Shown here: in pieces, positions 34,111 to 37,638 of the stretch | How positions within the stretch are numbered: position 1 is the stretch's first letter | Layout: each line of letters starts with the position of its first letter | DNA from: Rathayibacter sp. VKM Ac-2760 | GTDB lineage: Bacteria > Actinomycetota > Actinomycetes > Actinomycetales > Microbacteriaceae | Reading direction: 5' to 3' | Assembly: GCF_009834185.1 (NCBI RefSeq) | Contig: NZ_CP047173.1 | Location: forward strand, 1,391,725-1,455,724 | Length of the DNA stretch: 64,000 nt | Made by a program: the position numbers and the translations under genes | The notes under the pieces: model-generated | Told to the model about the DNA's origin: nothing | Databases searched by the model: none | What the model saw: the letters and a program-made list of their open reading frames with translations, nothing else

Positions 34111-34183
34111 GCGCAACATCAGCCCGGAGCCGACCTCAGCCACGATGGCGGACGGCGACCGCTCTCAGCCGACGTTCTGCGCG
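34111..34183. repeat. palindromic intergenic repeat, family 2 (degenerate copy C)
   Basis: GCGCAACATCAGCCCGGAG ... CTCTCAGCCGACGTTCTGCGC with conserved internal GATGGCGGACG core. Confidence 0.7.
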
Positions 34184-34255
34184 GCCCGCGCGCGCCGTCG
34201 GTCTCGTCCAACACTCCGATCGCTCGGAATCGAGTTCCGTATTACGATAATCGTC

Positions 34256-34519
34256 ATGAGCGACGGGGAGACGATCGACGGCCGGCCGGTGACGGAGGAG
34301 CAGATCGCAGAGTGGGCGGCGGAGGCGGAGCGCGGCTACGACATCGATGCCCTCAAGGCGAGAGGCCGAGGACGCCCCGGTAGAGGCGCTCTCCCCTCGC
34401 AGGTCGTCGCCGTTCGGCTCACCCTGGACGAGCTCGCCGCACTCGACGAGCGCGCCGCCCGGGAGCACAAGACGCGCTCCGAGGTCGTCCGCGAGGCGCT
34501 CGCCGCGTCGGCGGCGTGA
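34256..34519 (+). CDS. ribbon-helix-helix (CopG/BrnA-like) antitoxin
   Basis: 87 aa; C-terminal RHH (VVAVRLTLDELAALDERAAREHKTRSEVVREAL); GTGA overlap with downstream toxin. Confidence 0.6.
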   Translation: MSDGETIDGRPVTEEQIAEWAAEAERGYDIDALKARGRGRPGRGALPSQVVAVRLTLDELAALDERAAREHKTRSEVVREALAASAA

Positions 34520-34755
34520 AGGTCCACCCTTCGGCGCTCAAGCACGGGATCTCGGCGGACGACGCCGTCCACGCCGCAGACCTGGCGCTCTGGGTCGAGG
34601 AACTCGACGACGACTCTCCGGCGCGTCAGCTCCGCCTGGGCTTCGATACCCGCGGTCGGCTCCTCGAGACGGTCGTCCTGATCTTCGACAGCGGCCACGA
34701 ACTCGTCATTCACGCGATGAAGGCCCGCCCGGGCATGATCGAGCTCCTGCCCTGA
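34516..34755 (+). CDS. BrnT-like (DUF497) putative ribonuclease toxin
   Basis: KHGISADDA and VIHAMKARP match BrnT KHGxxFxEA / RIISARxA signatures. Confidence 0.5.
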   Translation: MKVHPSALKHGISADDAVHAADLALWVEELDDDSPARQLRLGFDTRGRLLETVVLIFDSGHELVIHAMKARPGMIELLP

Positions 34756-34875
34756 CGGGCCGCTGACGGGTCGTTCAGGCCGACGCGCGCGTCGGTGCCG
34801 GTCAGGGGCGATACGTCTGTGCGGCTCCCCGCTGCGTCCTCCCTCTTCCGAACGTCGGCGACTTCTCGCGCCCCC

Positions 34876-36594
34876 TCAGAAGTAGCGCGCCAGGTGCTCG
34901 CGGAGCGCCTCGTCGCAGACGTGCACGTACGTCCCCCTGATGCCGCGCGTGAGCAGCACCGTGTAGATGTTGCGGACGTACGCGAGCAGGTCCTCGTCGC
35001 TGTAGGTGATGCCGAGCTTCGGGTTGTTCTCGCGCCCCTTCTTGTCGAAGTAGTGCGAGCGGTCGAAGACGACGCGTCCCGAGGCGGTGTCGAAGCGCAG
35101 ATCGCGGCCGATGATGACGCCCGCGTAGTTGAGGTCGTAGCCCTGCACCGTGTGGATCGAGCCGACCTCGTCGATCGCGCCGGGGGAGTTGATCCAGTCG
35201 CGCTGCGTCTGATTCCAGCGGAGCGACTCGTCGCCGATCACGATGTCGAAGGCGCTCCTGTCCGTCTTCGTGACCCACTTCCACGCGTAGCCCGCGACCA
35301 GTCGTGAGAGGCCGTGCTCCCGGTCGCGCTCGACGATCGAGCGGCGCAGCTCGCCCGGATCGTCGAAGAAGCGCAGGTCGTACTCGCCGAAGTCCTCGCG
35401 CGCCGACGGCGGATCATCGGACAGCGCGGCGCGGACGTAGCCGACGTAGTCCTTCTCCGCGGCGATGCGCATCTGCGAGCGGAGCGGGTAGACCCGGCCC
35501 TCGGCCGACGCCTCCGCGAGGACGGCGCGGGTGACCGTCGCGGGCAGGTCCGCTGGGCGGACGGTCTGCGCGGTGTCCAGCATCAGGATCGTGTGCCTGC
35601 TCCGCGCGCGGATCCAGTCCAGCTGCGTGTACTCGAGCGAGTCCTCGCCGAACAGCCGCTCGTTGATGTCGATGAACTTGCGGTTGAGCGGCCCCGAGGG
35701 CTGGTTCGCCCGCTGGCTGAGCCGGTGCGCTTCGTCGACGAGGAGCAGATCGAACGGCTCGTCGCTCTCGCCGACCTGGAAGGGCGTCAGCACCAGGTCC
35801 TTCGACAGTCCCGGGGTGAGGCTGAAGACCCGGGAGATCGACCCGCGCAGCGACTGCTGCGGCACGACGAGGCCGACCCGCAGCGTCGACAGCAGCTCCG
35901 CGTGGCCCGGGGTGAAGAACTCGCTGAAGATCGAGTCGCCGTCCAGCGGCTCCTCCGGGTCGTGCTCGCGGATGTCCTGCAGCAGCTTCAGCAGGTAGAT
36001 GGCGACGACGGTCTTCCCGGTCCCCGGATCGCCCTGCACGACGACGGTGCTGGGACCGCCGGACTCGAGGTCGGTGAACAGCCCTTCGAGGATGTCCTCG
36101 ACCGCGATCGCCTGATCGTGGTTCAGCGCCTTGAACGGAGACAGCTTGAAGAGATCGCTGTTGACGATCTCGGGGAGCGTCCGCTGGAAGAGCTTCTCCT
36201 CGGTGCGGAGGACCTCGAACACCTCGTCGAACGTCCGGCGGTAGGACGCGCGGTCGAAGTAGTCGGCGTCGGTGATGCCGGCGTTGTGATTGAGGACAGC
36301 CAGGCGGCCCTCCCCCGAGAGCATCCGCAGGAGGAACGATTCGAGGTCGAGGCAGGCCGACTTGTTGAAGGTGTCGTCGAGGACGACCCGCACCCGGTCC
36401 AGCCGGCTCTTCTCCGGCGAGTCGAGGTGCTGGCGCAGTCGCCCCTCGGCGTTCAGCGACTCGCCGACGTAGACCTCCGAGGCGCTGTCGAGCACGTAGA
36501 CGACGGGCCAGTTCCGGTGCCGCGGGTCGGCGGCGCCCCACACGCGCACCCGATCGGAGTCGAACGGGAGTCGCTCGACGCTAAAGCCGGTCAT
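34876..36594 (-). CDS. GIY-YIG nuclease-like N-terminal domain + DUF2075 P-loop NTPase (Schlafen/helicase-related)
   Basis: VYVLD...VYVGES...RLRQH GIY-YIG-like N-terminus; Walker A GDPGTGKT, Walker B LLLVDEAHRL. Confidence 0.8.
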   Translation of the reverse strand: MTGFSVERLPFDSDRVRVWGAADPRHRNWPVVYVLDSASEVYVGESLNAEGRLRQHLDSPEKSRLDRVRVVLDDTFNKSACLDLESFLLRMLSGEGRLAVLNHNAGITDADYFDRASYRRTFDEVFEVLRTEEKLFQRTLPEIVNSDLFKLSPFKALNHDQAIAVEDILEGLFTDLESGGPSTVVVQGDPGTGKTVVAIYLLKLLQDIREHDPEEPLDGDSIFSEFFTPGHAELLSTLRVGLVVPQQSLRGSISRVFSLTPGLSKDLVLTPFQVGESDEPFDLLLVDEAHRLSQRANQPSGPLNRKFIDINERLFGEDSLEYTQLDWIRARSRHTILMLDTAQTVRPADLPATVTRAVLAEASAEGRVYPLRSQMRIAAEKDYVGYVRAALSDDPPSAREDFGEYDLRFFDDPGELRRSIVERDREHGLSRLVAGYAWKWVTKTDRSAFDIVIGDESLRWNQTQRDWINSPGAIDEVGSIHTVQGYDLNYAGVIIGRDLRFDTASGRVVFDRSHYFDKKGRENNPKLGITYSDEDLLAYVRNIYTVLLTRGIRGTYVHVCDEALREHLARYF

Positions 36595-36907
36595 GCCTGG
36601 TGCTTCTCCCGCGAGCCTTCTCCACCGGGTACTTGGCCCTGGTCCTCTCGAGCTTCGCGAGGACGATCTCGCCCGCGTCCACCCCGAGTCGGTCGGCGAG
36701 CAGGAGAGAGTAGGTCAGCACGTCCGCGAGCTCGTCGACGGCCGAGGGGAGGTCGCCCTCGCCCCACTGGAAGCACTCGAGCAGCTCGCCCGACTCGATG
36801 CTGATGCTCTTCGCGAGGTTCTCCGGCGTGTGGAACTGCGCCCAGTCGCGCTCGCGCACGAAGGCGCGGAGGGCGTCGAGGACCTCGTCATCGGGCATGG
36901 CTGCCAA
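36581..36907 (-). CDS. MazG-like nucleotide pyrophosphohydrolase family protein
   Basis: 108 aa with EsgELlE...ELADVL MazG-type motif; overlaps DUF2075 start by 14 nt (likely co-transcribed). Confidence 0.7.
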   Translation of the reverse strand: MAAMPDDEVLDALRAFVRERDWAQFHTPENLAKSISIESGELLECFQWGEGDLPSAVDELADVLTYSLLLADRLGVDAGEIVLAKLERTRAKYPVEKARGRSTRHDRL

Positions 36908-37066
36908 CCTACAGCGGCGGTGCGGCGGTCACCCTGCCCCCGCTCGCTTCGACGCCCGAGATCCGCCGAGCGTGCGATCGCGGCGAGGCCCCCCCTTCGC
37001 GTCCACTGCCTCGCCACCCGCCACCGACCGGACCCGAGCGGGGCTTCGCCGCGCCGCCAGGCCCTG

Positions 37067-37546
37067 TCACATGTCCGGCCGGCCGAGTTCCTTCCGCAAC
37101 TGCAGAGCCGTCGGCTCGTAGCCGAGCGACTCGTACAGCCCGCGGGCCGCGGTGTTGAAGCCGAAGACGTTCAGCGCGAGCGCCCGGTAGCCGCGCGAGC
37201 GGGCGTGCTCCTCCGCCAGCAGCATCGCCGCGCGGCCGAACCCGCGGCCCCGCTCGGCCGGGTCGACCTCGACGTCCCAGACGTAGGCGACGCCCTCGAG
37301 GTCCTGCGGGTGCGGGCCGACCCAGAGCACCCCGACCGGGCGTCCGTCGTCGAGGATCCGCAGCAGGTCGTGGCCCGGCGCGAGGTCGCCGCCCGGGAAG
37401 AGCCGCTCGTCGTTCGCGTCCGCGTTCCGCACCGCGGCGGCCTCGTCGTCGCCCGCTCGGATCCGATCAGCGACGTACGTCCTGCGTTGGACGGACCTCC
37501 ACGCCGTCAGTTCGTCGGGTGGGAGCGGCGCGAGGGAGACGGACAT
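37067..37546 (-). CDS. GNAT family N-acetyltransferase
   Basis: GNAT motif A (RGRGFGRAAMLLAEEHARSRG). Confidence 0.75.
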   Translation of the reverse strand: MSVSLAPLPPDELTAWRSVQRRTYVADRIRAGDDEAAAVRNADANDERLFPGGDLAPGHDLLRILDDGRPVGVLWVGPHPQDLEGVAYVWDVEVDPAERGRGFGRAAMLLAEEHARSRGYRALALNVFGFNTAARGLYESLGYEPTALQLRKELGRPDM

Positions 37547-37569
37547 GCCCCACGGTCCCACACCGCCGG

Positions 37570-37638
37570 CACGACGTCAGCTGAGGCACCGGCTCAACGC
37601 CGATGGTGGATGACGAGCGGTCTCAGCTGACGTCGTGC
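37570..37638. repeat. palindromic intergenic repeat, family 2 (copy D)
   Basis: GCACGACGTCAGCTGAGG ... TCTCAGCTGACGTCGTGC. Confidence 0.8.

Follow-up and report, generated by a model that had tools for sequence, protein, structure and literature searches.

What is the functional unit at the centre of this locus of Rathayibacter sp. VKM Ac-2760, and what does it do for the cell that carries it? The stretch of DNA that we analysed, and that we will call the window, comprises 64,000 nt of contig NZ_CP047173.1 (positions 1,391,725-1,455,724; assembly GCF_009834185.1). An earlier note on this DNA had described at 34111-37638 a 3.5-kb cargo-like island bracketed "exactly" by two palindromic repeats and holding five genes, namely a toxin-antitoxin pair, a gene for a MazG-like pyrophosphohydrolase, a gene for a 572-aa protein with a DUF2075 domain and a gene for a GNAT acetyltransferase. 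The five genes and both repeats are indeed found where they had been placed, but the island that they were thought to form is not. What we find instead is smaller. The MazG-like gene and the gene of the 572-aa protein constitute, on solid evidence, an accessory two-gene functional module, which is a genuine ancient one and to which we are inclined to attribute a role in defence. Whichever function holds, the unit worth studying is this 2.05-kb pair and not the 3.5-kb "island".

A pyrophosphohydrolase and a nuclease-helicase encoded together

The features of the pair, all on the minus strand, are the following.

36581-36907, minus strand: MazG-like gene, a 108-aa open reading frame (ORF; PF12643, 2e-15, 57.2 bits)
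34876-36594, minus strand: GIY-YIG + DUF2075 gene, 572 aa (PF09848, 3e-66, 224.6 bits)
36280-36516, minus strand: predicted GIY-YIG nuclease domain (residues ~27-105 of 572)
34912-36051, minus strand: predicted DUF2075 / SLFN-g3 helicase core, residues 182-561 (Pfam and Foldseek)
36581-36594, minus strand: overlap of 14 nt in which the MazG gene ends and the helicase gene starts (read from the sequence)
34870-36917, minus strand: MazG/DUF2075 block of 2.05 kb, conserved as a unit (blastn against 8 Rathayibacter loci)

The 572-aa protein, which is 100% identical to a DUF2075 protein recorded for Rathayibacter sp. VKM Ac-2760, had been read as a GIY-YIG-like N-terminus joined to DUF2075, and this reading stands. 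Its match to PF09848 lies far above the cut-off of 24 bits and spans model positions 2-354 of 354, and a full-length AlphaFold2 model, with a predicted local distance difference test score (pLDDT) of 88.6, retrieves RecD2, SLFN11, Dna2 and Upf1 in Foldseek with E-values of about 1e-10. The Walker A motif GTGKT (G191-T195) and the Walker B/DEAH motif (D287-H290) are invariant in 63 homologues. The N-terminal domain has the GIY-YIG fold, and its catalytic residues Y33, Y42, R52, E85 and N102 do not vary in either of two sets, of 63 and of 32 homologues; their spacing is one that we take to resemble that of UvrC. The family model PF01541 scores 19.5 bits on the protein itself, against a gathering threshold of 22.6; many homologues that are 70-78% identical have a recorded match to it, and its score reaches 22-29.7 bits in more distant ones. 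Judged from its sequence and its predicted structure, the protein combines in one chain a GIY-YIG nuclease and a helicase/ATPase of the superfamily 1B (SF1B) type, which belongs to DUF2075 (Schlafen group 3).

A fusion of MazG to the helicase, of the Rosetta-stone kind, was considered and rejected, as the long homologues carry an S24 peptidase or an HSDR_N domain instead. Five metagenomic homologues at 36-41% identity (P0140, P0147, P0195, P0197 and P0243) end in a Peptidase_S24 domain of the self-cleaving LexA/UmuD type, and a MazG-like gene lies upstream in P0140 and P0197, the two S24 variants whose context was examined. The homologue P0171, which has the N-terminal HSDR_N domain, has no MazG and is followed by a gene for an RsmB-F-type methyltransferase.

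The ORF of the MazG-like protein begins with TTG, and its likely start is the ATG at 36898. It exceeds the gathering cut-off of PF12643 (27 bits) by a factor of about two, and its best sequence matches in the PDB are 4qgp, an archaeal-type pyrophosphatase (4.7e-17), and DCTPP1 and RS21-C6 (5.4e-16), so that sequence comparison makes it a member of the DCTPP1/RS21-C6-like clade of all-alpha NTP pyrophosphohydrolases. The metal-binding motifs ExxE and ExxD (IESGELLE and DELAD), as well as FH..NL and FQW, are retained by 95% or more of the 80 orthologues. DCTPP1 and RS21-C6 have been described as highly specific 5-methyl-dCTP hydrolases (PMC10742078). Around the operon, no sigma-70 promoter or terminator signal exceeded the shuffled expectation.

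Conservation of the pair

Relatives were sought in one genome per species, for 185,579 species; 499 were found and 80 loci were kept, whose flanking ORFs were called by an approximate rule based on GC content at the three codon positions (GC1/GC2/GC3). The conservation of the two genes as neighbours, on which the earlier note had made its proposal depend, turned out to be strict: a MazG homologue lies directly upstream in 80/80 actinobacterial loci, which span Microbacteriaceae, Micrococcaceae, Brevibacteriaceae, Nocardioides, Frankiaceae and Patulibacter, and the two genes are also adjacent on at least 27 megaplasmids of the Bacillus cereus group. The same 14-nt overlap recurs in 73 of the 79 orthologous loci and probably reflects translational coupling of the MazG and helicase genes, and the two genes co-evolve, the pairwise distances of their proteins being correlated (r = 0.80). 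On a B. thuringiensis megaplasmid, a MazG that is 43% identical lies upstream of a DUF2075 protein, and this plasmid helicase aligns with the window protein over its full length at 31% identity, GIY-YIG motif included; in the 27 megaplasmids, the two matches are 198-253 bp apart and on the same strand. The pair is also found on a mobilizable L. plantarum plasmid, on a contig labelled "Bacteriophage sp." (a label that is unverified) and on two IMG/VR contigs where the order is swapped, the helicase gene coming first with MazG still adjacent. A phmmer search against 1.84 billion cluster representatives yielded 468 clusters at E <=1e-30. Where the DUF2075 protein is more distant, being 26-27% identical or having another N-terminal domain, a MazG partner is often lacking.

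No third gene accompanies the pair in the clustering of about 970 flanking ORFs from the 80 loci, the commonest flanking family being unrelated paralogues of a quinone oxidoreductase. The module is accessory, since only 499 relatives occur in the 185,579 species, since a congener has an empty site (L093) and since the helicase gene has decayed in Rathayibacter rathayi, as will be detailed below.

Two arrangements stood out among the loci. In Leucobacter massiliensis (L015/L016; NZ_MWZD01000024.1, ~83.6-119.1 kb), two copies of the pair, whose flanking genes have an identical but mirrored layout, are arranged around ~101.4 kb; this reflects either an artefact of the assembly or a perfect inverted duplication of very large size. 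On the L. plantarum plasmid NZ_CP028230.1 (L083, locus 249-5644), two pyrophosphohydrolase + helicase pairs lie side by side: in the first, a gene annotated as (deoxy)nucleoside triphosphate pyrophosphohydrolase overlaps the gene of a 960-aa DEAD/DEAH helicase, and the second is the MazG-like + DUF2075 pair. Genes with this (deoxy)nucleoside triphosphate pyrophosphohydrolase annotation are also found near the pair in L081 and L085.

Genomic context

Grouping the four nearest genes of each locus gave about 235 distinct clusters, so that almost every genus has the pair at another location. Defence-type neighbours do recur, in raw counts uncorrected for the genomic background: a PLD/SF2-helicase/DUF3427 protein adjoins the pair in 7 loci, plus L082; McrBC is near it in 3 loci, all of Curtobacterium; L060 has GmrSD, and 2 of 105 scanned neighbour representatives contain GmrSD_C; NERD-UvrD is present at 4 loci; and C5 methyltransferases were seen in 2 neighbour representatives. 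Most of these recurring neighbours are modification-dependent systems (DUF3427, McrBC, GmrSD). On plasmids, the neighbours include a restriction endonuclease, DUF262, HNH, a zeta toxin, DUF2357 and genes resembling those of the cyclic oligonucleotide-based antiphage signalling system (CBASS). An invariably housekeeping context, which had been named as the finding that would count against defence, is therefore not what is observed, as the pair repeatedly appears beside type IV restriction genes and in defence-like islands of plasmids. Carriage by phages was also considered, and it was rejected on the basis of 2 matches in 2.9 million viral contigs and the single unverified "Bacteriophage sp." contig.

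Relation to known systems

The pair had been said to be no named defence system, and PADLOC v2 agrees, as it returns weak and partial matches only, namely PDC-S14 (4e-6), PDC-S41 (1.5e-5) and Nhi (4.4e-4). Among the papers searched, none treats DUF2075 and MazG together, and none connects the two by way of anti-phage, GIY-YIG or Schlafen topics. The system is thus unnamed, yet the combination is not entirely new: it had already been shortlisted by Millman et al. (2022; bioRxiv 10.1101/2022.05.11.491447, Table S2), whose "Pyrophosphatase" candidate, among 45 candidates, consists of a MazG-like and a DUF2075 protein. The two genes are adjacent there as well, and the MazG of their representative SG193 is 42% identical to that of the window (E 6e-32). 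The DUF2075 proteins of SG192 and SG193, however, have an N-terminus of the PD-(D/E)xK type where the window protein has GIY-YIG, and they reach only ~24% identity to it, around the Walker motifs alone (E 4e-6).

The closest validated anti-phage proteins by architecture are Nhi of S. epidermidis (SERP2475; Bari et al.) and Nhi-like of B. cereus FSL H8-0482 (SG141; Millman et al. 2022). They share with the 572-aa protein an N-terminal nuclease followed by a DUF2075/SF1B helicase, and Dda, Upf1, Dna2 and RecD2 are common structural relatives. Their nuclease is PD-(D/E)xK whereas that of the window is GIY-YIG, and Nhi is a single stand-alone protein whereas the window family has its MazG partner in every one of the 80 loci. 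The Nhi match of PADLOC covers residues 157-205 of the 572-aa protein only (49 residues), and BLASTP against SG141 finds nothing significant beyond Walker A. Membership in Nhi or Nhi-like is ruled out by the sequence and by the type of nuclease. DUF2075 proteins have been noted beside DUF3427 enzymes, and DUF2075-GIY-YIG fusions have been mentioned, by Lutz et al. (2019; PMC6765204).

On the side of the pyrophosphohydrolase, DCTPP1/RS21-C6 and the phage protein MazZ share with the window MazG an all-alpha fold family and the ExxE...ExxD motifs (E 5e-16 to DCTPP1), but they are stand-alone house-cleaning or phage pool-remodelling enzymes, whereas the window gene is locked to a nuclease-helicase. 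Defences that act by nucleotide depletion (dCTP deaminase, dGTPase and SAMHD1-like enzymes), which Tal and colleagues are said to have described in 2022, also turn an enzyme of the deoxynucleoside triphosphate (dNTP) pool against phage replication, as we propose for the window pair. These are single enzymes that deplete canonical dNTPs, whereas the window pyrophosphohydrolase is paired with a presumed DNA-targeting effector and its preference for modified dNTPs is no more than a hypothesis.

Schlafen proteins of group 3 (SLFN5/11/13/14) have the same helicase domain, PF09848, and the structural search places SLFN11 and SLFN14 near the top of its matches; the window protein differs from them in being bacterial and in having, in place of the AlbA_2 RNase core, what appears to be a GIY-YIG DNA nuclease. 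Finally, Eco29kI and PD-T4-3 (PDB 9u75, described as a restriction endonuclease specific for 5-hydroxymethylcytosine, 5hmC) are GIY-YIG enzymes without helicase and without MazG, and the PADLOC models of PD-T4-3 do not match the 572-aa protein.

What could the pair do?

The explanation that we favour, with some reserve, is that the pair is an anti-phage or anti-mobile-DNA system, in which a nuclease-helicase of the Nhi type is complemented by an arm acting on the nucleotide pool. Its candidacy is supported because the pairing is strict, the module is accessory, the motifs are intact and modification-dependent restriction systems recur among the neighbours. The helicase, driven by ATP, would load on DNA that is invading or being replicated, and this DNA would be cut by the GIY-YIG domain; MazG would hydrolyse dCTP-type nucleotides, possibly 5-modified dCTPs from phages with modified cytosines, and this activity would either starve phage DNA synthesis or set the specificity of the nuclease. 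The defence role, the interaction between the two proteins, the substrate of MazG and the order of these events are what we infer from the above. If the defence role is true, this would be a two-gene system widespread in Actinomycetota, in Bacillus megaplasmids and in lactobacillus plasmids, which joins a DNA-targeting nuclease-helicase with a nucleotide-pool enzyme and broadens the bacterial ancestry known for the Schlafen helicase domain.

Several observations weigh against it. The only published tests concern the related "Pyrophosphatase" candidate: SG192, from B. firmus LK28, gave no defence when 26 phages were tried on E. coli and B. subtilis hosts, and the cloning of SG193, from B. thuringiensis Lr3/2, failed (Millman et al. 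2022). The earlier note's proposal of a two-gene defence candidate is supported by the conservation of the module and by contexts that are in part defence-like. The matches to PADLOC models are poor and partial, the defence-type neighbours are uncorrected counts, and most immediate neighbours are ordinary genes, such as transporters of the major facilitator superfamily (MFS) and the ATP-binding cassette (ABC) type, permeases and TetR regulators. Viral carriage is next to nil. The identity of MazG/DUF2075 across Actinomycetota, 58-92%, is high for a defence gene, and at least 9 Rathayibacter species have retained the pair in the same part of the chromosome; its GC content at third codon positions (GC3) is host-like. 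Such conservation and stability look more like those of a stable cellular function than those of an arms-race gene.

These last points lead to the reading of the pair as a system of DNA repair and nucleotide-pool sanitation, to which we give a limited but real weight, although we think it rather unlikely. Here, MazG would remove a non-canonical dNTP and the GIY-YIG helicase would find and incise the same lesion, or an aberrant structure, in chromosomal DNA, the nuclease acting like UvrC or Slx1, in a logic that is that of MutT combined with a repair nuclease. The closest relatives of MazG, DCTPP1 and RS21-C6, are house-cleaning enzymes and GIY-YIG is the repair fold of UvrC and Slx1; strong conservation, host-like GC3, stable retention in Rathayibacter, mostly housekeeping neighbours and the negative phage test of SG192 all fit, and the S24 domain of the LexA/UmuD type in relatives, one of which lies near umuDC-like genes, would be in keeping with DNA-damage signalling. 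A repair function sits badly, however, with a patchy distribution and a clean empty site in a congener, with gene decay in R. rathayi, with carriage on megaplasmids and small mobilizable plasmids within defence-like clusters, with repeated adjacency to type IV restriction systems and with a context that differs in almost every genus. If it were true, the pair would represent an unrecognised accessory repair pathway. Less probable still, and in our opinion quite improbable, is an arrangement that resembles toxin-antitoxin systems or abortive infection, in which the nuclease-helicase would be a latent toxin for the cell's own DNA and MazG would neutralise or regulate it, for instance by destroying a nucleotide activator, until infection tips the balance towards death or arrest. 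Coupled translation, which the gene overlap suggests, would keep the two proteins in fixed proportions, the partner is kept even where the gene order is swapped, the cloning failure of SG193 is compatible with toxicity, and the self-cleaving S24 domain of relatives could be a release switch. In E. coli, MazG is encoded downstream of mazEF and modulates mazEF, which counts in the same direction. The window protein, however, gives no sign of toxicity, SG192 is clonable and inert, and the conserved catalytic motifs of MazG argue for an enzymatic role over a purely inhibitory one; moreover, this arrangement overlaps the defence explanation more than it excludes it.

Within the defence explanation, a more specific version can be proposed because of the affinity of MazG to DCTPP1 and of the type IV restriction neighbours. 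In this version, MazG would destroy phage-made dNTPs such as 5-hydroxymethyl-dCTP and 5-methyl-dCTP, and the GIY-YIG helicase would degrade the DNA containing them, alongside type IV restriction. This would amount to a nucleotide-pool "restriction" that complements the DUF3427, McrBC and GmrSD neighbours, and the LexA-type S24 domain of relatives would couple its activation to RecA/single-stranded DNA signals. We know of no defence system that uses the selective destruction of modified dNTPs, and we hold this version to be unlikely. It could account for the negative test of SG192 if none of the phages in that test had the modification concerned.

The pair is not part of a repeat-bounded island

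How does the pair relate to the genes and repeats that surround it? The window was compared with 8 other Rathayibacter loci and with the empty-site loci L093-L095, and the features concerned are the following.

32723-37090, no strand: segment missing from the empty-site locus L093 (blastn of the window against L093)
34256-34519, plus strand: ribbon-helix-helix (RHH, CopG-type) antitoxin gene (PF01402, 30.7 bits)
34516-34755, plus strand: putative toxin gene, 79 aa (weak PF04365; PDB 9sdc_C)
37067-37561, minus strand: GNAT acetyltransferase gene (PF00583)
34112-34182, no strand: palindromic repeat copy C (repeat-family comparison), without counterpart in related loci
37569-37641, no strand: palindromic repeat copy D, between GNAT and permease, outside the inserted segment
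30961-31033, plus strand: tRNA-Gln(CTG), one edge of the variable region (tRNA call, Rfam)

In the congener with the empty site, tRNA-Gln, flotillin, GNAT and permease are contiguous. By blastn, positions 28281-32722 and 37091-39111 of the window align to L093, which has roughly 240 bp in place of the interval that separates them. Because only this interval is missing there, the inserted DNA corresponds to ~32.72-37.09 kb, which contains a 280-aa lipoprotein-like gene, the stretch 33680-34110, the toxin-antitoxin pair and the MazG/DUF2075 pair. Because flotillin, GNAT and permease are adjacent at the empty site, GNAT and repeat D belong to the backbone, and GNAT, which had been counted among the cargo, is an unrelated neighbour of the pair. 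The missing segment therefore has copy C inside it and copy D outside.

The block 34870-36917 is the only one that moves intact, its ends being constant within ~10 nt in all 8 loci while its neighbours differ (blastn). Its placement varies, as it lies between GNAT and flotillin in some species, as here, and between flotillin and tRNA-Gln in L003, L007 and L034. The toxin-antitoxin pair and the lipoprotein-like gene are gained, lost and reordered independently of it: the toxin-antitoxin pair is complete in L003 and L007 only, is reduced to remnants in L004-L006 and is absent from L001, L002 and L093. In R. rathayi (L089-L091, locus 4891-7185), the DUF2075 gene has decayed to fragments of 65-83 aa beside a DDE transposase / insertion sequence (IS) element, and only the 3' 530 bp align to the window. 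The whole interval from tRNA-Gln to the amino-acid permease (window 31.0-37.7 kb; L001-L007, L034, L089, L093) is a local rearrangement hotspot, where flotillin, the lipoprotein-like gene, the toxin-antitoxin pair and MazG/DUF2075 occur in at least 5 different orders and no integrase is visible.

The GC content of the region had been judged by eye to be lower than that of its flanks, and this impression was correct: 34111-37638 has a GC of 0.699 as compared to 0.740 for the window, and the MazG/DUF2075 block, at 0.682, is the lowest 2-kb stretch of the window (mean 0.740, standard deviation 0.023). What does not follow is a recent import. In a comparison by codon position over the window, the GC3 of MazG/DUF2075 is 0.93-0.955, which equals that of the neighbouring genes, so that the dip reflects codon positions 1 and 2 and the amino-acid composition; a recent horizontal import, as read from the low GC, is ruled out by this host-like GC3.

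Could a single acquired 3.5-kb mobile cargo island, delimited by both repeats and carrying all five genes, nevertheless account for the locus? The presence of repeats in both flanking intergenic regions and the lower GC of 34111-37638 had suggested it. The empty-site genome, however, keeps GNAT and lacks only 32.72-37.09 kb, copy D is conserved whatever the content of the supposed island and copy C is unique to this genome, the five genes come in varying orders and subsets across 8 congeners, GC3 is host-like, and the spacing of the repeats has a chance expectation of about 0.70. The claim of an exactly bracketed five-gene island does not survive these observations, and we regard such an island as extremely improbable. 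Synteny, the empty site, the survey of the repeats and the chance estimate rule out the repeats as its boundaries.

The toxin-antitoxin pair

The RHH antitoxin gene and the gene of its 79-aa partner overlap by 4 nt (34516-34519). They had been called BrnA/BrnT-like, of which the RHH antitoxin and the overlapping partner hold, but the BrnT assignment does not, since the match of the 79-aa protein to PF04365 (13.8 bits, E 0.077) is below the cut-off of 34.5. Its best solved relative is PDB 9sdc_C, labelled "Toxin" (2.2e-6). This pair is a separate module, unrelated to MazG/DUF2075.

Palindromic repeats

Copies C and D are true members of a family of palindromes that form hairpins of ~70 nt, whose outer stems are conserved (ACATCAGCTGAGA / TCTCAGCTGATGT) and whose folding z-scores range from about -1.5 to -7 according to the copy and the strand. 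nhmmer finds 5 copies in the window, starting at 7237, 16849, 34112, 37569 and 46026, and 5 random points in 64 kb would show some spacing of <=3.46 kb 70% of the time (P about 0.7). The copy at 16849-16921 is more diverged and was absent from the earlier list. The Rfam search matched tRNA only and gave no family for the palindromes. Copy D is kept between permease and GNAT in L001 and L002, irrespective of what lies between GNAT and flotillin, and copy C has no counterpart in the related Rathayibacter loci that were compared. The repeats are dispersed intergenic palindromes without a link to insertion.

The stretch 34034-34123 resembles the permease-GNAT intergenic repeat region of L001 (82.6%). 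The sequence hints that copy C may have arisen from a D-type copy that was duplicated. The unassigned stretch 33680-34110, which separates the lipoprotein-like gene from repeat C, holds a 51-aa ORF (33771-33926, plus strand) without a Pfam match.

A second palindromic family, with stems CGCGAGATGCCACTTGTG ... CACAAGTGGCATCTCGCG, has 4 copies in the window (2007-2099, 4000-4092, 18135-18227 and 58532-58624), which are 63-100% identical to the reference copy.

Other features of the window

A tandem array at 27354-28198 consists of 9.2 copies of a 92-bp unit (87% matches), a period that is not a multiple of 3. It is intergenic, between a sigma-70-family gene (26232-27305, minus strand) and a gene of the Glu/Gln-tRNA synthetase family (28303-29844, plus strand), and it has a strongly negative GC skew; the related loci L089 and L093 have only ~220-250 bp at this place. 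Finally, the intervals 11225-11540 and 13763-14078 share two direct repeats, one of 124 nt and one of 159 nt, which are 70-80% identical and both have a spacing of 2538 nt, a pattern that suggests a diverged tandem gene duplication.

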